From Candidatus Aldehydirespirator sp. (lineage in GTDB: Bacteria > Actinomycetota > Acidimicrobiia > Acidimicrobiales > Aldehydirespiratoraceae): DNA of 64,000 nt. Under the pieces are notes generated by a model. That model saw only the letters and a program-made list of their open reading frames with translations, did not search any database and was not told the origin of the DNA. The translations under genes and the position numbers were made by a program. The DNA is taken from contig OZ241903.1 in the NCBI GenBank assembly GCA_965203635.1, forward strand, positions 292,232-356,231, read 5' to 3'. This document shows positions 14,897 to 24,754 of the stretch, one piece after another (the first letter of the stretch is position 1; every line of letters starts with the position of its first letter).

Positions 14897-14968
14897 GCCC
14901 CCGTAGCTCAGGGGATAGAGCAACGGCCTCCGGAGCCGTGTGCGCAGGTTCGAATCCTGCCGGGGGCG
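14897..14968 (+). tRNA. tRNA-Arg (anticodon CCG)
   Basis: Hand-folded cloverleaf: acceptor GCCCCCG/CGGGGGC, D arm GCTC-AGGGGATA-GAGC, anticodon arm ACGGC-CTCCGGA-GCCGT, T arm GCAGG-TTCGAAT-CCTGC. CCA is not encoded. Confidence 0.9.
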
Positions 14969-14969
14969 C

Positions 14970-16184: not shown

Positions 16185-16799
16185 ATGGACATCGAGTTCT
16201 GGATCGACCCGCTTTGACCCTGGTGCTGGGTGACGGCCCGTTGGGTCGTCGACGAGGTGCAGCCGGCCAAGGACCTGAACATCACCTGGCAGCCGATCAG
16301 CCTGTTCTTCAAGAACGATCCCGATCCTGACTCCGACTACTACACGCACTCCTACTTCAGCCTGAGGCTGATGAGGGTTCTGGAGTCGGTCCGGGAGGCC
16401 GAGGGCGACGACGCGGTGGGCCCCCTGTACTGGGAGTACGGCCGGCGCCTGCACCACGACGGTGTGCGGGAGTTCGCGGTGGCCGACGCGCTGGAGGCGG
16501 TCGGCTACGACACCTCACATGCGGCCGCCTTCGACGACGACTCCTGGGACCCGGAGATCCGCAAACGCATGGACGAGGGCCTGGCCCTATGCGGCGACCA
16601 GGTGGGCACCCCGATGATCGCCCTGAAAGATCGCAACGGCGACAAGCAGGGCTACTTCGGCCCGGTCATCACCCGGGTGCCGCCCCCAGAGGACTCCCTG
16701 GCCATGTGGGACGCCCTGGTGGCCATGATGAACGTGTCCGGCTTCTGGGAACTCAAGCGCACCCGCACCGAACGCCCCGAGTTCGGCCCCCGCCCCTGA
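16185..16799 (+). CDS. DsbA-like / Rv2466c-like thiol reductase with in-frame TGA (candidate selenocysteine) at 16215-16217
   Basis: AAGGAG lies 7 nt upstream of ATG 16185. Read-through gives MDIEFWIDPL-U-PWCWVTARW..., colinear with the FWFDPLCPWCWITSRW active-site region and the C-terminal FWELKRTRTE of Rv2466c-type proteins. The track ORF (GTG 16230) starts after the motif. Confidence 0.65.
16232..16250 (+). promoter_or_regulatory. Candidate bacterial SECIS hairpin
   Basis: GACGGCCC-GUU-GGGUCGUC gives an 8-bp stem (one G-U pair) starting 14 nt after the UGA, with G and U in the apical loop. Confidence 0.35.
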
Positions 16800-16800
16800 A
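16773..16800 (+). repeat. Direct repeat DR-L (cgccccgagttcggcccccgcccctgaa), the true 3' end of the DsbA-like gene
   Basis: 26 of 28 nt identical to 21710-21737. Encodes RPEFGPRP plus TGA. Confidence 0.85.
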
Positions 16801-16810
16801 GCAATCAGAC

Positions 16811-18784
16811 GTGCAGGTCTCAACGATTCTAGACCACATCGACAGCGGCTACATGGCGCTTCCTAAGTTTCAGCGCGGCTACGTGTGGAATCGCGACCAG
16901 GTGCGTGGGCTCATGGAGTCGGCCTACCGCCGCCACCCGGTAGGTAGCCTTCTCGTCTGGGCCACGGCCGCAGACGACGCGCCTCACCGGGGCGAGCGAG
17001 AGTTGGCGCCAGGCGTCGTCAGACTGCTCCTTGACGGCCAGCAGCGAATAACCACCCTCTACGGCATCGTCCGCGGATCACCGCCGTCCTTCTTCGACGG
17101 GAACGCGAGAGCGTTCTCAGATCTCTACTTTCACATCGGGAGCCAGGAGTTTCGGTTCCACCAGCCCTCGCGCATGAAAGGTGACCCACTCTGGGTCGAT
17201 GTAACTGCGCTGATGCGAGAGGGGAACGCTGGACTGGGAAAACACATCGCCAAGCTGACGCAGAACCCCGAGCTCGAGTCGATGCAGGGTGACTTCATCG
17301 GCCGCCTTAACAACATCCTCGGAATCCGCGAGATCGACCTACATGTTGAGGAGGTGACAGGGTCCGACAAGACTGTCGACGTCGTAGTGGATATCTTCAA
17401 CCGCGTAAATGGTGGCGGTACCAAGCTGTCGCAGGGTGACTTGGCGCTCGCAAAGATCTGTGGCTCGTGGCCGGACGGCCGAGAGCACATGCAATCGATC
17501 CTTGAGCGCTGGCGTGGGCGCGGGTACGACTTCACCCTCGACTGGCTGCTTCGCAACGTGAACGCGATCGTGACTGGCGAAGCGCGGTTCGAACACCTCC
17601 ATGATGTATCAACCGCCGATATTCAGAACGGCCTCGACCGTGCCGAAAAGGCCATTAACCACGCCCTGAATCTGATTGCCAACCGGCTCGGCCTCGACCA
17701 TGACCGCGTACTCTTCGGCCGCTACGCGCTGCCGGTCATGTCGCGCTATATCGACCAGCGCGGCGGTCGGTTGGCGGATGCAGCCGAGCGGCGTCGCCTT
17801 CTCTACTGGTACTTCCAGAGTGCGATGTGGGGCCGCTTCTCCGGCTCGACGGAGACGACGCTCAACCAGGACTTCGAAGCGATCGAGGAGCTAGATAGCG
17901 GCCTCGACGGCCTGCTAGATCGACTTCGTCTCTGGCACGGCAGTCTACGCGTAGAGCCCGGGCACTTCCGCGGTTGGAGCCTAGGGGCGCGGTTCTACCC
18001 CGTGCTCTACGCGCTCACGCGCGTGGGTGAAGCCAGGGATTGGGGTACTGGTGACGTCTTGAAGCACGGAATGCTGGGAGCAATGAGCGCGCTCGAAGTG
18101 CACCACATCTTTCCGAAGTCTCTGCTCTACAAGAACGGCTTCGACCGCTCGCGAGTGAACGCCGTCGCGAACTTCTGCTTTCTCACGAAGGGCACGAACT
18201 TGCAGATCAGCGACCGTCCACCCTCGGAATACTTCCATAAGGTCGAGGATGGACACCCGGGTTCACTCGCCTCACAGTGGATCCCAATGGACGAGGCGCT
18301 CTGGGAAATCGACAACTACCCGCGATTCCTCGAAGAACGCCAGCGATTGCTTGCCGCCGCGGCGAATGAGTTGCTTGACGGCTTGCTGCAAGGCGCGGCG
18401 GGGTCGGTCGAGTCCGCGGAGGCGCCTCCCGCCGAAGTCCCAGCGAGCGCTCCGCCAGTAATTCCGGGTGGGATCGCTGAGGAAGACGAGAGGGCCGTGT
18501 TGCAAGCCATCAACGAGTGGGTGCGAGAGCAGGGGCTGCCGGAGGGCTACATGGAGTACGAACTCGCGCATCCCGAGACGGGCGACCCTCTCGCCATCCT
18601 CGACCTCGCGTGGCCGAACGGCCTTCAGCCGGGTTACAGCGATCCGGTCGCGCTGCTGCTCGGCGAGGAACAACAGACCTTGCAAATTGCGAACGACCAT
18701 GGCTTCCGCCACTTCACAAGTGCCGAAGCCTTCAAGCGCCACGCGGAAACCGAGGTGCTGGCCCTCGCTAGCACGGATGGGTAG
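16811..18784 (+). CDS. GmrSD-like DUF262 (ParB/DGQQR) plus His-Me/HNH (DUF1524-like) protein with an extra C-terminal domain
   Basis: ALPKFQRGYVW and LLLDGQQRITTLYGI (DUF262), then EVHHIFPKS...NFCFLTKGTNLQISD (HNH-like). About 150 further aa are of unknown type. GTG 16811 was chosen; the upstream part of the track ORF overlaps the previous gene. Confidence 0.8.
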   Translation: MQVSTILDHIDSGYMALPKFQRGYVWNRDQVRGLMESAYRRHPVGSLLVWATAADDAPHRGERELAPGVVRLLLDGQQRITTLYGIVRGSPPSFFDGNARAFSDLYFHIGSQEFRFHQPSRMKGDPLWVDVTALMREGNAGLGKHIAKLTQNPELESMQGDFIGRLNNILGIREIDLHVEEVTGSDKTVDVVVDIFNRVNGGGTKLSQGDLALAKICGSWPDGREHMQSILERWRGRGYDFTLDWLLRNVNAIVTGEARFEHLHDVSTADIQNGLDRAEKAINHALNLIANRLGLDHDRVLFGRYALPVMSRYIDQRGGRLADAAERRRLLYWYFQSAMWGRFSGSTETTLNQDFEAIEELDSGLDGLLDRLRLWHGSLRVEPGHFRGWSLGARFYPVLYALTRVGEARDWGTGDVLKHGMLGAMSALEVHHIFPKSLLYKNGFDRSRVNAVANFCFLTKGTNLQISDRPPSEYFHKVEDGHPGSLASQWIPMDEALWEIDNYPRFLEERQRLLAAAANELLDGLLQGAAGSVESAEAPPAEVPASAPPVIPGGIAEEDERAVLQAINEWVREQGLPEGYMEYELAHPETGDPLAILDLAWPNGLQPGYSDPVALLLGEEQQTLQIANDHGFRHFTSAEAFKRHAETEVLALASTDG

Positions 18785-18799
18785 CTGCATCGCCGCATA

Positions 18800-18837
18800 C
18801 CGACGACCGGGCTACACACATATGGCCCGGTCGTCGG
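18800..18837. terminator. Perfect 13-bp inverted repeat between convergent genes
   Basis: ccgacgaccgggc-tacacacatatg-gcccggtcgtcgg, 16 nt after the stop at 18784. There is no T-tract, so it could act in either direction. Confidence 0.5.
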
Positions 18838-18950
18838 TCTAGGCGCGGGCCTTGGCGGGCCGACATCCATGACTATGCGGCTGCTGCAGACGTGATCCTG
18901 CGGGTTTCGGCGGAAGTAAGTGCATGTGGCCGCTTCGCTCTTCTCGCGCG

Positions 18951-20255
18951 TCACGAGAACTGCTTGCGCTTTAGCCACACCAGCCCTTCGCCCCGCGAGA
19001 TCACCGCAACATCGATCGGGCCACCGACGACATCGGCACCGGGGGTGAACTTCTCCTGGAACGATGCAAGGTGAACAAGTGTCTCAGCCATCTCCGCCAA
19101 GTGCTCCTTAGGAAGGCCCTGAACCAAATCGAGTAACGGTGCGGCATAGTAGGCAACCCTCATCTCCAACTCATCGGGCATCGAACTAATGACCTCGGAC
19201 GGCAGGGTTTGAAGCCAATCGACAACACCGTCGTAGCGCCTGGGATTCACTAAATCTTGAAGACCGTACGCTACCCGATCGATCAGTGCATTCAACAAGT
19301 CGAACACAATACTATGGTGAGCCTCAAGGAACTGGGGATGTATACCATCTATCAGGGTCCGCGCTACGTCATGTTGCTGCGCCAGCGGATAAATCATTGA
19401 CGCGCAATTGTCGTCAATGCTGATGTGATCGAGATGACGCGCTTTGATAACATTGTCCATGACTTGATCAACAATCCAATGAGTCAAGGATGGAAATAGC
19501 TGTTCATTTCCAAAGCCCGTGACGACCATGCCTGTTGATCCTGGTGACCAATCCGCTGTGCGGAGCGACTGCAATGTCGACCTCTCTAAATCATCTCGCA
19601 GAGTTCGTGTCAGCATCCTCGCGTCAAACGCTAGCAATTCAGGTAACTGACTGAACCAGAGACTCAAGAACTCGTTCCAGCTATTCACGGTCTCGCCATG
19701 CAACTGCCACCCTCTCACTGCTGTCTCCAATTGCTGTACAGCTCTAGTTTCTGAGATGCCAGACACGGGACCAATATCAGTCAGATACTCTGATCTCATT
19801 CGGGCAGCACGACACACCTGATCTTGAAAATAATCTTTCAACGCACCACCATCACTGGGTGCTGTCTGCGCGAAACGCCGCGCGCTTTCCTGCGCCATTC
19901 CACAGAGTTGCTCCAATTCCCAGAGGATCTCTGTCCTTACGAACTCCAGTTGCATCTGTGAAGAGATGTGTGAAACCATCTGCGGTAGGAACTCCACGAA
20001 GCATGAACCGTACTCTTCAACGGTAGAGAAGGACACATCCGTGTGTTCTTGCTTATACTGCTGTACTATCGTTTCCCAAGGTATGGGACCGAGCGATCCG
20101 GCACCATAGAACATGATTAGAACCGGCGGATCGAGCGACAGTGGAAATATCTTGTTTGCCGTCTTGTATACCTTCCTATCAGCTCCCAAGGTCACAGCAC
20201 TGTCGGCCGCGACAGCGACCGCTGCCCGATTGAGTATTGCTACCTCTGCTGTCAT
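18951..20255 (-). CDS. Orphan 434-aa protein with a possible HslV/proteasome-beta-like Ntn-hydrolase core and large helical insertions
   Basis: Clean ORF with AGGTG 5 nt upstream of the ATG. GC is about 47-50 % against about 68 % in the flanks. The first 24 residues, MTAEVAILNRAAVAVAADSAVTLG, align without gaps to E. coli HslV [24 protein letters not shown]. Confidence 0.6.
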   Translation of the reverse strand: MTAEVAILNRAAVAVAADSAVTLGADRKVYKTANKIFPLSLDPPVLIMFYGAGSLGPIPWETIVQQYKQEHTDVSFSTVEEYGSCFVEFLPQMVSHISSQMQLEFVRTEILWELEQLCGMAQESARRFAQTAPSDGGALKDYFQDQVCRAARMRSEYLTDIGPVSGISETRAVQQLETAVRGWQLHGETVNSWNEFLSLWFSQLPELLAFDARMLTRTLRDDLERSTLQSLRTADWSPGSTGMVVTGFGNEQLFPSLTHWIVDQVMDNVIKARHLDHISIDDNCASMIYPLAQQHDVARTLIDGIHPQFLEAHHSIVFDLLNALIDRVAYGLQDLVNPRRYDGVVDWLQTLPSEVISSMPDELEMRVAYYAAPLLDLVQGLPKEHLAEMAETLVHLASFQEKFTPGADVVGGPIDVAVISRGEGLVWLKRKQFS

Positions 20256-20343
20256 TGTTGCACCTGGTTGTCATTGTGATGTGGAATGGACCTAGCATGA
20301 CTGTATCTCCGCATCTGCCAGCCGGCCCGAGCAACTGGGTGCG

Positions 20344-21573
20344 CTAGCCCCATAGGGCGGCGATCGGGATCGCCTCTATTCGATCCTCCAGACGGAACTG
20401 GGCCGGGCCGGTGTGAAGCACCACTCCCGCCTTGAAGCCGTCCCCAAGCTGATCACGCAGCCACACCAGATGGCGGGCGTGGGCGAGCGTGGGCGCGCTG
20501 TGGGCCTTGATCTCCATGCCGATGAGGCCTCGTGCACCCAGATCGGCGATCAGATCCACCTCGTGGCGACCGTCGCGGTCGCGCAGGTGGTACAACCTCG
20601 GCCGGATCGGGTCCACAACGATCTCGGCGCGCAGCTGGTTCGTTACGAACGTGTCGATCAGCCGACCGAGGAGATCGCCGTCGCTCATGACCAGACGCAG
20701 GTCGGCGCCGACGGCCGAGGCCCACAGGCCGGTGTCGGCCACGAATCGCTTCGGCCCGCGGGCCAGGCGCTTGAGGCGGTTGCTGCTCCACGCTGGGAGC
20801 TCAGCTATCACGCCGAGGTCGCAGAGCAGCCTGGTGTACGAGAGCGATGTGCGCCGGTCCAGGCCGGCGGCCTGGTGGAGGGTTGTGTCGTTCACGATCC
20901 CCGCAGAGTTCAGCGCGTACGCCTGGAAGAACTCGATCAGCCTGGGGGGATCGCCGCCGCGGCGCCCGGCGGCGCGTTCATGGGTGAGCAGCTGATCCAG
21001 GTAGCTGTCGAGCCAGCCGGCCCGAACGCTGCCGGCAAGTTCGATGGCCGGCTCGGGAAAGCCGCCGCGCAGCGCTATCTCGGCATAGCCGCGCAGGTCG
21101 GGCGGGTCGCTCGGGACGGACAGCGGCTCCGCTGACAACAACCCGCTCAGGAACGGGCGCGAGGGCGCCGAGACCAGCTCCCGTACGGTCAGAGGATGCA
21201 TGGCAATCCTGATGAGACGACCCGTACCTGGCCAGAGGGCCGGATCCGCATCAGAGCGGACCGAGCCCGTCAGAATGAACCGTCCGACCCGGCGATCGGC
21301 ATCCACCGCCCGCTTGACGGCACCGAGCACACCGGGGCATGCCTGCCACTCGTCGAGCAGCACAGGCTCGGGCCGATCCCGCAGCGCCGCGTCGGGATCG
21401 GCCTCAATAGGGAAGGCCTCGCGCTCGTTGTCCAGCCGCACGACGCTGGCGGCGTGGCGCAGGGCGGTGGTGGTCTTGCCTGAAGCGCGCGCACCGGTGA
21501 TCATCACTGCCGGCGCTGAGGCCAGGACCTCAGCGATCCAAGGATCAACTAGGCGCTCCAAGTAGCGGTCCAC
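20344..21573 (-). CDS. AAA(AAA_14)-type ATPase with a DUF4143 (PD-(D/E)xK-like) C-terminal domain
   Basis: Walker A GARASGKTT, Walker B VLLDEWQ, C-terminal EVDLIAD...GMEIKAHS. GTG start at 21573. Confidence 0.85.
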   Translation of the reverse strand: MDRYLERLVDPWIAEVLASAPAVMITGARASGKTTTALRHAASVVRLDNEREAFPIEADPDAALRDRPEPVLLDEWQACPGVLGAVKRAVDADRRVGRFILTGSVRSDADPALWPGTGRLIRIAMHPLTVRELVSAPSRPFLSGLLSAEPLSVPSDPPDLRGYAEIALRGGFPEPAIELAGSVRAGWLDSYLDQLLTHERAAGRRGGDPPRLIEFFQAYALNSAGIVNDTTLHQAAGLDRRTSLSYTRLLCDLGVIAELPAWSSNRLKRLARGPKRFVADTGLWASAVGADLRLVMSDGDLLGRLIDTFVTNQLRAEIVVDPIRPRLYHLRDRDGRHEVDLIADLGARGLIGMEIKAHSAPTLAHARHLVWLRDQLGDGFKAGVVLHTGPAQFRLEDRIEAIPIAALWG

Positions 21574-21602: not shown

Positions 21603-21710
21603 GAATGCCGTTCTAGCGCACTCTTGAATGCCGGTTTGGCGCATTAGTGAAGACGGATATAGCGCATGCTCTCATGCTGGTTTGGCGCACTCCGATGCCG
21701 GTTGCTCTCC
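21603..21710 (+). repeat. Four direct copies of an 18-19-nt motif ATGC(C/T)GGTTTGGCGCA(C/T)
   Basis: Copies: gaatgccgttctagcgcac (21603), gaatgccggtttggcgcat (21626), tcatgctggtttggcgcac (21672), cgatgccggttgctctcc (21693). They lie between the start of gene 20344-21573 and DR-R. Confidence 0.55.
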
Positions 21711-21737
21711 GCCCCGAGTTCGGCCCCCGGCCCTAAA
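21710..21737 (+). repeat. Direct repeat DR-R (cgccccgagttcggcccccggccctaaa)
   Basis: 26 of 28 nt identical to 16773-16800. In the corresponding frame it would also read RPEFGPRP plus TAA, although it is not attached to any ORF. Confidence 0.85.
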
Positions 21738-21803
21738 CCCTTACGGCACACACCCGAAACTGATGCAATCTCTACTTTGGATTGTCATGATAATCTAAAG
21801 GAC

Positions 21804-22958
21804 ATGTTTCAGCGGTTGCTGTCACTGCCGGAGCCCGGGACCGAGACCTTCTTCCTGTGGGGGCCGCGACAGGCGGGAAAGAGCACCCTGCTCAGGCAGC
21901 GGTGCCCCGACGGGATTTGGGTCGATCTGCTCAAGGCGGACGAGTTCCGCCGCTACGCGACCCGCCCGGAGCAATTGCGCGAGGAACTGGAGGCGGCGGG
22001 CCCGGACCCGTCGCGCCAGGTGGTCATCGACGAGATCCAGAAGGTTCCCGCCCTGCTCGACGAGGTGCACTGGCTGATCGAGAACCGCGGGCTGCGGTTC
22101 GCCCTGTGCGGATCGAGCGCGCGCAAGGTGCGGCGAGGCGCGGCGAACCTGCTTGGCGGACGGGCCCTGCGCTACGAATTGCGCGGCCTGACCGCCGGAG
22201 AGCTCGGGGAATCCTTCGACCTCGACCGGATGCTCAACCACGGCTGCCTGCCCTCGATCTACGGGTCCAGCGGGCACCGGCGCCGGCTCGACGCCTACAT
22301 CGCCGACTACCTGCGTCAGGAGGTCGCCGCCGAGGGACTGGTGCGAAACCTGCCCGCCTTCTCGGACTTCCTCGACGCAGCCGCGCTGAGCGACACCAAT
22401 GGTGTCAACTATTCGAACGTTGCTCGCGAGTGCGGCGTGTCGGGACCCACCGCCAAGGCGTACTTCGGCATCCTGGAGGACACGCTGCTGGCTCGCTGGC
22501 TGCCCCGCTGGCGACGCCGGGCGAAGCGCCGCCTGGCCGGCGCGCCCAAGCTCTACTTCGAGGATGTGGGCCTCGTGAACCGTCTGGCGCGGCGCGGCGA
22601 ACTGCACCGCGGTTCTGACGAGTACGGCAAGGCGTTCGAGAACTGGGTGTTCCATGAGCTCTCGGCGTTCCTCGCATATCGAGAGCGCGACGAGCAACTG
22701 ACCTACTGGCGACTCCCAAGCGGCATCGAGGTCGACTTCGTGGTCGGCGACATGCGGATCGCGATCGAGGCGAAGGCGAGCGCCAGAGTCACCAACAGGC
22801 ACCTCAAAGGCCTCCGCACCCTCGCCGAGGAGCACCCTGGCGTCGGTCGCCGGGCCGTGGTCAGCCTCGAACCTCGCCCACGCCGCACCAGCGACGGCAT
22901 CGACGTCATCGGCGCAGAGAACTTCGCCCGACAACTCTGGCAAGGCGAACTCGTGTAG
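21804..22958 (+). CDS. AAA(AAA_14)-type ATPase with a DUF4143 (PD-(D/E)xK-like) C-terminal domain, second copy
   Basis: ATG 21804 follows an AT-rich stretch. Walker A GPRQAGKST, Walker B VVIDEIQ, C-terminal EVDFVVGD...IAIEAKAS. Confidence 0.85.
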   Translation: MFQRLLSLPEPGTETFFLWGPRQAGKSTLLRQRCPDGIWVDLLKADEFRRYATRPEQLREELEAAGPDPSRQVVIDEIQKVPALLDEVHWLIENRGLRFALCGSSARKVRRGAANLLGGRALRYELRGLTAGELGESFDLDRMLNHGCLPSIYGSSGHRRRLDAYIADYLRQEVAAEGLVRNLPAFSDFLDAAALSDTNGVNYSNVARECGVSGPTAKAYFGILEDTLLARWLPRWRRRAKRRLAGAPKLYFEDVGLVNRLARRGELHRGSDEYGKAFENWVFHELSAFLAYRERDEQLTYWRLPSGIEVDFVVGDMRIAIEAKASARVTNRHLKGLRTLAEEHPGVGRRAVVSLEPRPRRTSDGIDVIGAENFARQLWQGELV

Positions 22959-22965
22959 TGCCGGC

Positions 22966-24108
22966 CTACGGGCCGCAGAAGTGTGACCAGACGGCTCCGG
23001 ACCTGGCCGGGCCTATGCCTCTGACCGCTTCGAGGTCTGCCCGGCTGGAGAACGGCTGGGCGGCGACCAGCCTGGCGGAGAGCACCTCTCCGATGCCGGA
23101 AACCGCGTCGTACTGAGCCGCGGTCTTGCCCGCGATCACGCACTCGTCGGGAGGGGCAATCGTGGTCGTCGGCGGGACTGTCGTCGTCGGCGGGACTGTC
23201 GTCGTCGGCGGGACTGTCGTCGTAGTGGCCGGCGGTTCGGCCGAGAACCCGGGCGCCTGATCGCCGCATCCCGACAGCGTCCGGCTGAGGGCATCCGCCT
23301 CGGCCTGGTCGACGGCCAGGTCCCATGCCGACTTGACCGTCACCGTGACCCGAGCCAGCAAGCAACGCCCGGCCGACGTGACCGTGTACCCGCCACCGCA
23401 TGCCGACGACCGGGCGATGTCGGCGTCGGACCACTCGGAGATGTCGTCTCCGCCCTTGGACTGGTTCACGCAGGCACGCGACGCCACGTGGTTGGCCGGG
23501 TCCTGGCTGAAGCGCTGCTTCGCGTTCCCGGACCACGCCCAGCCGCCCGACTCGTGCGCCTCGTGCAAGGCCACCACATGATCGACGTTGCAGGTGTCGA
23601 TGGGGGTGCCGGTATAGGGGTCAGGAGAGCCGACCGCTCCGCGGCACAGACCGCTGTTGTGGGGGCCCCAGGCGTCGCGGTCGTAGCCAGCGTCGTATTC
23701 CGCCGCCACCGACAGCGAGATCGAAGGGATGGACGTCGTCGGTACAGACACCTCCGGCACGGACTCCGTACCTTCTGCCCCTGCAACTGTTGCCGTCGGC
23801 GCCGATATCGACGGCACCGAGACCGAGGGCGCGGAGACCTCAGGTGCAGAGGCAGTTGGAACCGAGACCTCGGGCACATACACCTCAGGCACAGAACCGG
23901 ACGGCGCAGACACCTCCGGCACAGACGTTGCACTCGTGGACGGGGTGGACTCGTCCTCGGGGGTGGTGAGTGGCGGCGCCGGGTCCTCGGTTGAGCCGCG
24001 GCCATCAATCGATCCGCAGGCGGCTGTGATGACCAGCGCCAGTACCGCTGTGACTCGTATGAGCCGTCCGAACCAGAACTCAGCGCTGCGTTCAGACTCG
24101 GACCACAT
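22966..24108 (-). CDS. Lipoprotein-type secreted HNH/DUF1524 nuclease with a ComEA-like helix-hairpin-helix C-terminus
   Basis: Lipobox LVITAAC, Ser/Pro/Val/Glu-rich linker, VDHVVALHEAHESGG...NHVASRACVNQSKGGDDISEW (DUF1524-type His-Me finger), (TTVPPT)n linker, then SGIGEVLSARL...VRGIGPARS (HhH). Confidence 0.7.
   Translation of the reverse strand: MWSESERSAEFWFGRLIRVTAVLALVITAACGSIDGRGSTEDPAPPLTTPEDESTPSTSATSVPEVSAPSGSVPEVYVPEVSVPTASAPEVSAPSVSVPSISAPTATVAGAEGTESVPEVSVPTTSIPSISLSVAAEYDAGYDRDAWGPHNSGLCRGAVGSPDPYTGTPIDTCNVDHVVALHEAHESGGWAWSGNAKQRFSQDPANHVASRACVNQSKGGDDISEWSDADIARSSACGGGYTVTSAGRCLLARVTVTVKSAWDLAVDQAEADALSRTLSGCGDQAPGFSAEPPATTTTVPPTTTVPPTTTVPPTTTIAPPDECVIAGKTAAQYDAVSGIGEVLSARLVAAQPFSSRADLEAVRGIGPARSGAVWSHFCGP
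23165..23218. repeat. 18-bp x 3 perfect tandem repeat inside the coding sequence (encodes the TTTVPP linker)
   Basis: gtcgtcggcgggactgtc occurs three times in tandem. Confidence 0.9.
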
Positions 24109-24484
24109 TTAGTGCTTCGACGTGCGGGAAGTCTCGGTCCTGGGTTACGACCGGCACCCCGAGCGCCATCGCGGTGGCGGCGATCCAGGAGTCGTTGACC
24201 GGCATGTTCAACTTCTCGTCGCGCAGGATCAGGCGAAGCCTGGCCCATGCCGAGGCGACGCCCTCATCCACCGGCACCGGCTGGAGCGAGAGCGCAGCCG
24301 CCAGCGTGGAGAGCCGCCGGTCGCGGGTGGGCGTGTCGGTTGCGGCGAGCACCCCGGCCCGCAACTCGCCGATGGTGATCACCGATACAGCGAGCTCCTC
24401 GGGGAGGGACTCTGCCAAGATCGACCTTCCCGTCTCCCGCGCGATGAAGACGGAGGTGTCGGCGAGTCCCCGGCTCAACGCCAC
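24092..24484 (-). CDS. vapC: PIN-domain toxin VapC
   Basis: GTG 24484 overlaps the vapB stop by 10 nt. LADTSVFI...ELRAGV...NDSWIAATA...VVTQDRDF carries the PIN acidic residues. Confidence 0.85.
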   Translation of the reverse strand: MALSRGLADTSVFIARETGRSILAESLPEELAVSVITIGELRAGVLAATDTPTRDRRLSTLAAALSLQPVPVDEGVASAWARLRLILRDEKLNMPVNDSWIAATAMALGVPVVTQDRDFPHVEALNVVRV

Positions 24485-24729
24485 AGCAGGTCGTCGGTCG
24501 TGTCGCCGGCCAGCGACGCCAGGTCCGCGGTGAGCCCGGCATCGGCCTGATGAGCGAGCACATCGTGGACGAAGCGGCTTCTGCTCATCCACCGCGGCCT
24601 CTCAGCCACGGGAGCCAGTTCCGCCACCGGGCGCCCGTTCACGGTGACGGTGATGCGCTCCCCGTCGGCCACACGATCGAGGAGCGCCCGAGTCTGATTC
24701 CGCAGGTCCCTAGAGGCAACCTCACTCAT
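24475..24729 (-). CDS. vapB: Phd/YefM-type antitoxin (VapB)
   Basis: MSEVASRDLRNQTRALLDRVADGERITVTVNGRPVAELAPV, a typical Phd/YefM N-terminus, upstream of and overlapping vapC. Confidence 0.8.
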   Translation of the reverse strand: MSEVASRDLRNQTRALLDRVADGERITVTVNGRPVAELAPVAERPRWMSRSRFVHDVLAHQADAGLTADLASLAGDTTDDLLWR

Positions 24730-24738
24730 GCGACAATC

Positions 24739-24754
24739 GTAGCACAATTGCTAC
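24739..24754. promoter_or_regulatory. Candidate antitoxin operator palindrome GTAGCA-caat-TGCTAC
   Basis: 6-bp inverted arms 10 nt upstream of the vapB ATG. Confidence 0.3.

Follow-up and report, generated by a model that had tools for sequence, protein, structure and literature searches.

A PMI-4 family proteasome homolog, probably a stand-alone N-terminal-threonine hydrolase, encoded by a low-GC gene in an Acidimicrobiia genome

Identity of a compositionally foreign gene

What kind of protein is encoded by the one markedly low-GC gene in the stretch of DNA analysed here (the window, 64,000 nt from contig OZ241903.1 of Candidatus Aldehydirespirator sp.)? The gene (18951..20255, minus strand) has an ATG start and encodes 434 amino acids followed by a stop codon; its frame and translation are those given in an initial annotation made from the sequence alone. 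Its GC content is 0.520, 17 points under that of the genome, and 400-nt windows give 0.49-0.54 inside the gene vs 0.68-0.72 in its surroundings. Scanned at 1 kb, the whole window (~0.69) has its minimum here, at 0.502 (z = -5.2), with the runner-up at 0.609; this agrees with the initial annotation, which had estimated ~47-50% against 68-70% and called the gene the strongest compositional outlier. The gene, a single one, is compositionally foreign. The label "orphan" given to it then does not stand: we found at least 2,127 homologs, and at the level of 50% identity the family comprises 4,529 clusters, from bacteria, Euryarchaeota and phages.

Our answer, to which we give a probability of roughly 0.8, is that the gene encodes a stand-alone N-terminal-threonine (Ntn) hydrolase belonging to PMI-4 (Proteasome homolog with Multiple Insertions 4), one of 22 families of proteasome homologs catalogued computationally in 2021 (Fuchs, Alva & Lupas, Bioinformatics 2021, PMC8665760). 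The initial annotation had proposed a divergent, insertion-laden Ntn hydrolase of the proteasome/HslV type, and four independent lines of evidence agree with that core idea: structure prediction with Foldseek, profile-profile alignment, the invariance of Thr2, Asp18 and Lys35, and the Met-Thr starts of the family. It had named two outcomes that would tell against the idea, the lack of a fold match and a lack of conservation of the catalytic residues; both were checked and neither occurred. We regard the assignment of a proteasome-type core and of PMI-4 membership as almost certain.

Fold and domain layout

Structure prediction and Foldseek, two of the checks proposed initially, recovered a proteasome-type Ntn fold. 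The AlphaFold (AF2) model has a pLDDT of 84.7 and a pTM of 0.80, and its top 50 Foldseek matches in the PDB are all 20S subunits or Anbu, at probability 0.9-1.0 and with TM (target) of at most 0.58; a search of the BFVD viral structures gave no significant match. The predicted core is the alpha-beta-beta-alpha sandwich of proteasome beta subunits and HslV, with elements in the order S1-S4, H1-H2, S5-S8, H3, H4, S9-S10.

Five segments can be delimited along the minus strand. The N-terminal core (residues 1-131, 19863..20255, boundary approximate) holds S1-S4 and H1/H2, modeled as E4-9, E12-18, E35-41, E44-51 and H60-131, and aligns to residues 1-~100 of the beta subunit; in the model S3 (35-41) turns tightly into S4 (44-51), with no insertion between them. 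After H1/H2 comes insertion 1 (residues ~132-235, 19551..19862), mostly helical and with no counterpart in the beta subunit, whose modeled helices (H136-161, H169-180, H193-232) mostly exceed a pLDDT of 90; its position is the insertion site reported for PMI-3 and PMI-4 (PMC8665760). The central core (residues 236-306, 19338..19550) contains S5-S8 and H3 (E241-247, E256-266, E269-279, E286-290, H296-303), with an invariant G247-F-G249 on S5 and a near-invariant F291-A-Q293. Insertion 2 (residues ~307-380, 19116..19337) places three helices (H307-332, H338-358, H362-380) between H3 and H4, at the site where PMI-2 to PMI-6 have their "fourth insertion" (PMC8665760). The C-terminal core (residues 381-434, 18954..19115) consists of H4 (LPKEHLAEMAE..., H383-402) and the S9-S10 hairpin VGGPIDVAVISRGEGLVWL (E414-420, E424-429).

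The two helical insertions, of ~100 residues after H2 and ~75 between H3 and H4, double the size of the protein. The extra, mostly helical residues noticed from the sequence are thereby borne out, as the model has helices over 99-232 and 307-380, amounting to ~175-230 residues at two sites that are missing from 20S beta subunits.

Sequence evidence for proteasome homology

The relationship is hard to see with single sequences. The intact protein matched neither PF00227 nor any other Pfam at E <= 1, and as a single sequence it had no match in NCBIfam or among PDB sequences; the best match of a family profile to PDB sequences was the sub-threshold 3C91_H (Thermoplasma beta, E = 1.1). Full-length hhalign against one beta sequence, HslV or a beta profile yielded the C-terminal hairpin only, or nothing significant. 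That hairpin is itself the strongest signal in the sequence: in full-length profile-profile alignment to beta subunits it reaches a probability of 65-74% (E = 3e-5 to 6e-5), with 55-60% identity across 20 residues. The initial annotation had likened its C-terminal VGGPIDVAVISRGEG to the last hairpin of beta subunits, and the likeness to SGGMIDVAVITRKDGYVQL of Thermoplasma beta is indeed 60% over 20 residues.

With the insertions excised beforehand, guided by the AF2 model, the trimmed profile could be aligned over its whole length to archaeal beta subunits (172-183 columns), at a probability of 94-96% and E = 1e-7 to 4e-9. Taken as isolated segments in hhalign, the N-terminal part (probability 35%) and the middle (probability 1%) are each not significant alone. 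The same applies to the gapless 24-residue alignment to the HslV N-terminus from which the initial annotation started. The E. coli HslV N-terminus that it gave is correct (PDB 1E94), nine of the 24 positions are identical, and Asp17 and the TLG turn match; hhalign against HslV independently arrives at this register, pairing query 5-25 with HslV 4-24, although at E = 0.11 and a probability of 0.5%.

One element was placed wrongly at that stage. MVVTGFGNE had been equated with the GSG segment of the proteasome; hhalign and the model put GFG on S5, opposite the beta "LLVGGID" segment, and MVVTGFGNE is most probably strand S5 rather than the GSG loop.

Catalytic residues and predicted activity

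The protein begins Met-Thr, with no propeptide, as do 94 of 94 diverse family members in their Met-Thr start. Among 70 sequences that are 26-37% identical to the query, T2, D18, S19, K35, G247, G249 and D415 are invariant. Three of these form the proteasome triad: Thr2 (codon 20250..20252, minus strand), the predicted nucleophile and Thr1 once the initiator Met is gone, pairs with beta Thr1 in hhalign; Asp18 (20202..20204, minus strand), the equivalent of proteasome Asp/Glu17, aligns to Glu17 of Thermoplasma beta; and Lys35 (20151..20153, minus strand), the equivalent of Lys33, lies in a motif ANK-I/L-F (ANKLF vs GKKLF of beta). The Lys had been seen initially as one position off Lys33 of HslV, and so it is, being residue 34 of the mature protein. 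Beyond the triad, Y50-G51-x-G53 after S4 offers candidates for a Gly47 equivalent, with G51 and G53 in neither the invariant nor the 90% list of the 70-sequence alignment. The Gly128-Ser129-Gly130 loop is unrecognizable: G247-F-G249 aligns to the S5 "VGGID", in the middle of the alignment where reliability is low, and the S8/H3 junction bears P-F291-A-Q293 instead.

We judge from this conservation that the protein is likely, with some reserve, to be catalytically active. By analogy with E. coli HslV, Met1 would be removed by methionine aminopeptidase; the target, a peptide bond or another amide, would then be attacked by the free amine and the hydroxyl of Thr1, and Lys35 and Asp18 would relay the proton. 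The helical domain may be a specificity cap or a regulator.

Membership in PMI-4 and comparison with known systems

BLASTP aligned the window protein over residues 1-433 to residues 1-412 of HDY66466.1, the PMI-4 representative of Fuchs et al. (PMC8665760), at E = 5e-54 and 29% identity, and the family profile matched HDY66466.1 with 585 bits (E = 3e-170). The window protein has the makeup of PMI-4: a proteasome-like core with H1-H4, both insertion sites occupied, no insertion at S3/S4, the triad and no propeptide. It also matches phrog_5990 over its full length (E = 8e-75); PMI-4 equals phrog_5990. The architecture, which the initial annotation took to be undescribed while conceding that a described family with it would remove the novelty, is therefore known, and the window protein is of no new type. 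The catalogue describes PMI-4 computationally only and gives neither genomic context nor function (PMC8665760).

Within PMI-4, the closest relatives of the window protein are from Acidimicrobiia MAGs, and its clade, which is actinobacterial (Acidimicrobiia-like), is divergent relative to HDY66466.1. Compared with typical members, insertion 1 is longer by ~20 residues in this clade, and the C-terminal "YFxPELNxxF" tail is absent. The clade also lacks an unannotated ORF of ~60 amino acids that in most PMI-4 members, HDY66466.1 included, sits at the stop codon of the PMI gene; Pfam scans placed these small ORFs in no family. Having neither tail nor small ORF, the window clade may work differently from typical members.

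A well-known relative is the 20S beta subunit (Thermoplasma PsmB, PDB 1PMA/3C91; PF00227, MEROPS T1), which shares with the PMI protein the Ntn fold, the order of strands and helices, the Thr1/Glu17/Lys33 set, and a nearly identical S9-S10 hairpin (GGxIDVAVIxxxxG). Unlike the beta subunit, the PMI protein has no PF00227 match, propeptide or recognizable GSG loop, and its gene is a mobile accessory rather than a housekeeping gene, with neither an alpha subunit nor an unfoldase as partner. HslV (E. coli, PDB 1E94) has the same Met-Thr start, so that in both proteins Thr1 would be exposed by Met removal, with no autoprocessing; HslV differs in its size of 175 residues, its double hexameric rings and its need for HslU, and no HslU-like gene was found at the window locus or related loci. 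Anbu (PDB 5NYG/5NYJ/5NYW) ranks with the top structural matches, at a TM (target) of 0.5-0.58 and a probability of 0.99. It has ~235 residues, no large insertions and a conserved operon; the PMI gene has no such operon.

Weighing the alternatives

Connectase (Methanosarcina/Methanocaldococcus; PMC7980362), the one monomeric proteasome homolog to be characterized, is highly specific; it has no propeptide, and a helical insertion lies close to its active site. It suggests another activity: the PMI protein could be a transpeptidase or protein ligase, forming a Thr1 acyl-enzyme with a specific target motif that is resolved by aminolysis. The superfamily, the catalytic residues and the absence of a propeptide are shared, the large insertions could enclose the active site, and there is no unfoldase partner; Fuchs et al. 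lay weight on connectase as a precedent (PMC8665760), and the tiny downstream ORF conserved in most members could be a dedicated substrate. The anatomy points elsewhere, however. The insertion that defines connectase consists of two helices and lies between S3 and S4, and connectase has no H1/H2; the PMI protein has the tight S3-S4 hairpin in that place and retains H1/H2 (H60-131). The PMI proteins fall in group II with Anbu, PMI-4 grouping with the WPH/Anbu-like proteins and apart from connectase (PMC8665760), and the window copy has no small ORF that could serve as substrate. We consider the ligase reading unlikely.

A classical self-compartmentalizing ring protease of the HslV/20S type would degrade proteins, in bulk or under regulation, together with an ATPase, and the surroundings offer a candidate. 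An AAA_14 + DUF4143 ATPase gene (20344..21573, minus strand) lies directly upstream on the same strand, separated by a spacer of only 88 nt (20256..20343), and a second copy (21666-22958, plus strand) adjoins it; fold and triad also suit a ring protease. Comparison with other loci is against the pairing: in the syntenic relative L167 (87%) the ATPases are reduced to decayed fragments beside an intact PMI gene, they are missing beside relatives at 56-62% identity, whose genomic contexts differ, and they are missing from the 95 dereplicated loci, where a search for any conserved neighbor of at least 70 aa found none (maximum 4 loci). We therefore rejected the DUF4143 ATPase as a functional partner. 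Moreover, proteins of the AAA_14/DUF4143 type do not belong to the unfoldase-type AAA+ and have PADLOC candidate status of their own (PDC-S01), and the insertions fall at the pore-loop and ring-ring interfaces, at sites argued to block ring and double-ring contacts, for which Fuchs et al. predict a clash on assembly (PMC8665760). Assembly into such a ring is very improbable. The stand-alone hydrolase would probably be a non-compartmentalized, substrate-specific peptidase rather than a bulk degradation barrel, since its insertions occupy the ring and double-ring contact sites and no unfoldase partner is conserved.

Could the fold instead be a catalytically dead scaffold whose insertions carry a binding or regulatory function? 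The equivalents of Ser129/GSG and Gly47 are not clearly conserved, and proteasome alpha subunits are a precedent for inactive homologs (PMC8665760). But those alpha subunits carry N-terminal extensions and have lost Thr1; here the Met-Thr start and the triad hold without exception over bacteria, archaea and phages, at ~27-35% overall identity. Such constraint would be difficult to account for if the protein did no catalysis, and we think a pseudo-enzyme more improbable still than a ring protease.

That a recent insertion left this gene behind as a decaying remnant or a chance ORF, with no function in the genome, can hardly be right: its foreign composition, the loss of the family's tail and downstream ORF, and a scan that found no promoter or terminator consensus (including no sigma-70 consensus) on the gene's strand might suggest it, but the frame is intact both here and in L167, dN/dS between the two is 0.13 at 85.6% nucleotide identity, all catalytic and core motifs are kept, and the short C-terminus is common to the whole window clade (P0001-P0015). 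The gene is under purifying selection.

Mobility and possible role

The low GC content is a signature of the family, PMI-4 genes falling under their flanks in 98% of 91 loci. We found PMI-4 genes on 184 viral contigs, in GenBank phages and satellites (including satellite ends) and on plasmids. What travels is the gene by itself, whether on prophages, phage satellites or plasmids or in chromosomal islets. Among prophages, those of Providencia and ETEC have it in the moron slot between Q and holin; the E. coli (ETEC prophage) copy, WP_000123148.1, is one that lends itself to genetics. This is the position of the Shiga toxin in Stx phages.

A Pfam/PADLOC survey of 148 immediate neighbors, the first of two batches (the other comprising 130), was heterogeneous, with few defense genes and no recurrent AAA+, and chromosomal copies mostly have housekeeping genes beside them. 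Given this heterogeneity and the scarcity of defense genes, we rejected family-wide enrichment in defense islands as demonstrated. The PADLOC-DB 2.0 HMMs gave 0 families at E <= 1 for the PMI protein itself; both of its flanking genes in the window match (HEC-05, PDC-S01).

Among biological roles, one in phage-host or mobile-element conflict is the likeliest, and we put it forward only tentatively for PMI-4. A fuller and more doubtful version is that PMI-4 is a mobile conflict module, a stand-alone Thr protease or transpeptidase typically with a translationally coupled partner of ~60 aa (inhibitor, activator or substrate), carried as cargo by temperate phages, satellites and plasmids to exclude competitors or counter host defenses; in the window clade, a derivative without the partner would have become fixed in a chromosomal defense hotspot. 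If so, no enzyme of the proteasome family would have been given a part in prokaryotic immunity or counter-immunity before this one, and a specific stand-alone Thr protease engaged in phage-host conflict would extend proteasome-family biology to that field. The enzyme might also yield a useful specific protease or ligase, as connectase did. In the literature we found no link of proteasome homologs to phage defense and no mention of phrog_5990, WP_000123148 or QQK88393. For PMI-4, the small partner ORF, the place in moron slots and the GC content below that of the flanks were all found in the present analysis.

Surroundings in the window

The gene lies in a variable hotspot near tRNA-Arg in which defense-type genes are also present. 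The GC drop begins, as read from the sequence, in the 88-nt upstream spacer, and homology to L167 reaches ~20330, within that spacer; an SD-like AGGTG (20261-20265, minus strand) stands 5 nt ahead of the ATG. Flanking direct or inverted repeats that could mark a mobile cassette were sought in the window, yielding only short, chance-level matches.

Convergent with the PMI-4 gene is a GmrSD-type (type IV restriction-like) gene (16589..18784, plus strand; PF03235, E = 8e-25; PADLOC HEC-05, E = 5e-41). Its ORF is probably over-extended at the 5' end, since its domain match begins only at residue ~78 and it overlaps a DsbA-like gene (16230-16799). Between the two convergent genes lies a perfect 14-bp GC-rich inverted repeat with a 12-nt loop (18799..18838, 100% complementary), a possible bidirectional terminator hairpin in which the consensus scan found no T-tract. 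In L167 the PMI gene is joined straight to the counterpart of window positions 16662-16787, with no GmrSD-type gene, which places the latter outside the PMI module.

The window protein is a member of PMI-4

The 434-aa ORF at 18951..20255 (minus strand), whose quoted translation matches the window sequence, had been described in an initial annotation as an orphan whose architecture was not recognised as that of a described family. We found more than 2,127 homologues in a 90%-clustered database and 4,529 family clusters at 50% identity, nearly all of 420-450 aa, all named 'hypothetical' and none with a Pfam domain. One full-length member, cluster P0386, is called 'histone H3/H4' by one JGI source, which looks like a spurious automated annotation. 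Genome scans placed the gene at 444 loci or more, in Actinomycetota, Bacillota, Bacteroidota, Planctomycetota, Acidobacteriota, Chloroflexota, Nitrospirota, Cyanobacteria, Proteobacteria and several archaea, and on 184 viral or prophage contigs.

In a family-profile search we checked which accessions lie behind the best-scoring clusters of NCBI origin. One of these, P0404, scored 585 bits (E = 3e-170) and is HDY66466.1, the representative named for PMI-4 (Proteasome homolog with Multiple Insertions 4) by Fuchs, Alva and Lupas (2021; PMC8665760); it matches the window protein from residue 1 as far as the C-terminal hairpin (BLASTP E = 5e-54, 29% identity). That study catalogued 22 new proteasome-homologue families including the PMI proteins; in PMI-3 and PMI-4, long stretches are inserted after H1/H2 and between H3 and H4. 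PMI-4 was the largest, with 501 sequences in nr90 from most bacterial phyla, Euryarchaeota and phages; its function, genomic context and AAA+ partner were all reported as not found (PMC8665760). The phage family phrog_5990 ('unknown function') also matches the window protein over its full length (E = 8e-75), and we found no later literature on PMI-4. The structure had therefore been read correctly, and the architecture is that of a described, experimentally uncharacterised family; the initial annotation was right on fold and chemistry and wrong on novelty and orphan status. The window protein is a new, divergent member of this known but functionally blank family; its clade differs from the rest in lacking the C-terminal 'YFxPELNxxF' tail and in having ~20 extra residues in insertion 1.

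Fold and catalytic residues

Searched as a single sequence, the window protein matched nothing in Pfam, NCBIfam, PADLOC or PDB. The N-terminus had been aligned to that of HslV, whose sequence was given exactly; over these 24 residues 9 are identical, without gaps, and hhalign gives the same register, but alone the alignment is not significant (E = 0.11), and the resemblance by itself would not be proof. The AlphaFold2 model is confident (pLDDT 84.7, pTM 0.80, from a 44-sequence alignment) and has the order S1 S2 S3 S4, H1 H2, a helical insertion (~132-235), S5 S6 S7 S8, H3, a three-helix insertion (~307-380), H4, S9 S10, so that the predicted topology is that of a proteasome beta subunit or HslV with two insertions. 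The top 50 Foldseek matches in PDB were all 20S proteasome subunits or Anbu, at probabilities of 0.9-1.0, with the whole query aligned and target-normalised TM up to 0.58.

Profile comparison also upholds the proteasome-like fold. The full-length family profile (70 sequences, 26-37% identical to the window protein) aligned with Thermoplasma beta only at the C-terminal hairpin (VGGPIDVAVISRGEGLVWL vs SGGMIDVAVITRKDGYVQL, 55-60% identity, probability 65-74%). With both insertions removed, as placed from the AlphaFold2 model, it aligned end to end with a beta-subunit profile built from 23 sequences (probability 94-96%, E = 1e-7 to 4e-9, 172-183 columns), pairing Thr2 with Thr1, Asp18 with Glu17 and Lys35 with Lys33 (ANK-LF vs GKK-LF). 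This triad, anticipated in the initial annotation, is invariant across the 70 sequences, as are Asn9, Ser19, Gly242, Gly247, Gly249, Pro255, Gly304 and Asp415; Thr directly follows the start codon in 94/94 dereplicated members, from all the listed phyla and phages. In HslV, Thr1 is exposed by Met removal, there being no propeptide; PMI-4 is like HslV in its Met-Thr start and lack of a propeptide. The segment MVVTGFGNE had been misassigned to the GSG segment: its invariant G-F-G (247-249) lies on S5, aligned to beta 'VGGID', and the S8/H3 junction, the expected GSG place, carries a near-invariant P-F-A-Q (290-293), this middle region being the least reliable part of the trimmed alignment.

By this chemistry, Met aminopeptidase would expose Thr1, which would serve as nucleophile with Lys35 and Asp18 assisting as in proteasomes. 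The insertions fall at the pore-loop and ring-ring interfaces (PMC8665760), and no co-occurring unfoldase was found in 95 dereplicated loci; together these suggest that PMI-4 probably acts outside any compartment, as a specific peptidase capped by helices. The chief mechanistic alternative is a transpeptidase of the connectase type.

Composition and mobility

The window gene has a GC content of 0.52 (0.49-0.54 inside vs 0.68-0.72 in the flanks, 400-nt windows), and a 1-kb scan bears out its description as a compositional outlier: it forms the deepest trough of the 64 kb (0.502, z = -5.2), the runner-up being 0.609. A repeat search found no flanking repeats marking the borders of the low-GC segment. 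Ahead of the ATG, at a distance of 5 nt, is an SD-like AGGTG. Compared with the 87%-identical copy in L167, a syntenic relative on a Tara metagenome contig, dN/dS is 0.13, and the insertions have more amino-acid changes per residue (34/178) than the core (24/256); the window gene is functional and under purifying selection.

GC is lower in the PMI-4 gene than in its own flanks at 98% of 91 dereplicated loci (L002-L159), by a mean of 9.5 points and by >5 points in 77%. This holds across host GC of 0.29-0.72, and also at L161, L162 and L167. The window's anomaly is thus a family trait, of a kind that would be typical of repeatedly transferred cargo.

In GenBank the gene turns up among isolated temperate phages and in phage satellites of streptococci, frequently at the very end of the element; further copies are carried by Rhizobium, Enterococcus and Pantoea plasmids. 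A lambdoid Providencia phage has it between Q/Dam and holin, and in a Stenotrophomonas phage it is divergent from the lysis cassette. Of 5,426 complete E. coli genomes, 9 encode a copy annotated as 'hypothetical protein', WP_000123148.1, and several of these 9 are ETEC strains (for example E. coli ETEC-2265, NZ_CP023346.1 1791826-1793109, our locus L168); in the ETEC prophages the gene sits between antiterminator Q and a methylase/tRNA/holin block and is oriented antisense to the late operon. The Q-to-holin slot is the stx position in Stx phages.

Of the neighbours 70 aa or longer, none is shared by more than four of 95 dereplicated loci, and in 56-62%-identity relatives PMI-4 is a lone gene among metabolic genes; the genetics are those of a stand-alone mobile gene. 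The 148 immediate neighbours scanned in bulk were heterogeneous, with few defence-type genes (DRT reverse transcriptase, GmrSD/HEC-06, some methyltransferases), and we claim no family-wide enrichment in defence islands. The cargo locations make a role in phage-host or mobile-element conflict plausible, a reading in which our confidence is fairly low. The value of these observations lies in leads that make PMI-4 function testable: compositional foreignness, the moron-slot location, the E. coli copy and a coupled small ORF.

A small ORF at the PMI-4 stop codon

The 70-aa threshold of the neighbour survey had hidden this ORF. Two phage annotations have a 58-aa CDS 3 nt past the PMI-4 gene, and same-strand ORFs of 45-95 aa starting -45..+60 nt from the PMI-4 stop occur in 85/92 dereplicated loci vs 39/92 on the reverse strand. 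The ORF, of ~50-68 aa, begins at the stop or overlaps it; plus-strand examples are L169:5284-5466, L164:5212-5388 and L166:6119-6295. One HMM family (consensus ...F+S..EYEKKYFPKS...DP..LG..LA+ESL.KI...) covers 47/163 loci, from Acidimicrobiia to Methanosaeta, Bacillota, Cyanobacteria and phages, with 0 matches on the reverse-strand control; a Pfam scan assigned it to no family. At the HDY66466.1 gene it is a called 60-aa gene with a 4-nt overlap with the stop and AGGAGG ahead. The PMI-4 description in PMC8665760 lacks genomic context and so does not mention it. No frame of window 18700-18950 encodes a related peptide, and the sequence is host-like immediately after the PMI-4 stop codon; the small ORF is lost in the window's clade.

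The window locus

A tRNA-Arg(CCG) at 14897-14969 lies ~4 kb from the PMI-4 gene. Convergent with the latter is a GmrSD-type gene (16589-18784, plus strand; PF03235, PADLOC HEC-05), whose mechanically called 731-aa ORF overlaps the 3' end of a DsbA-like gene (16230-16799); its GmrSD_N match begins at residue ~78, and its real start probably lies at about 16.79-16.82 kb. The convergent genes are 166 nt apart, and this gap holds a GC-rich inverted repeat of two perfectly matching 14-bp arms around a 12-nt loop (18799-18812 / 18825-18838); we found no T-tract terminator consensus there, and the repeat may be a bidirectional terminator. Upstream by 88 nt is an AAA_14/DUF4143 ATPase (20344-21573, minus strand), and beyond it a divergent second copy (21666-22958, plus strand), both matching PADLOC candidate PDC-S01 (E = 3e-94 and 1e-55). 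Such a back-to-back pair of paralogues is unusual.

Between L167 and the window, nt identity is 85.6% over the PMI gene plus ~75 nt of upstream sequence. At L167:2641-2893, compared with window 16790-18790, the next gene after PMI-4 is the DsbA-like one, matching window 16662-16787 at 89.7% nt identity, so the GmrSD gene is an indel; of the two upstream ATPases only fragments remain. The tRNA-Arg-near locus is therefore a variable hotspot with the PMI-4 gene as its stable resident, and we reject GmrSD and the DUF4143 ATPases as obligate partners.

Farther out, translations read by eye suggest that a 380-aa product (22966-24108, minus strand) begins with a signal-like segment, contains Pro/Thr/Ser repeats and an HNH-like 'DHVVALHEAHESGGW' motif, and ends in a ComEA-like helix-hairpin-helix tail; it is followed by VapC (PIN) toxin-like (24092-24592) and antitoxin-like (24475-24747) ORFs, both on the minus strand.
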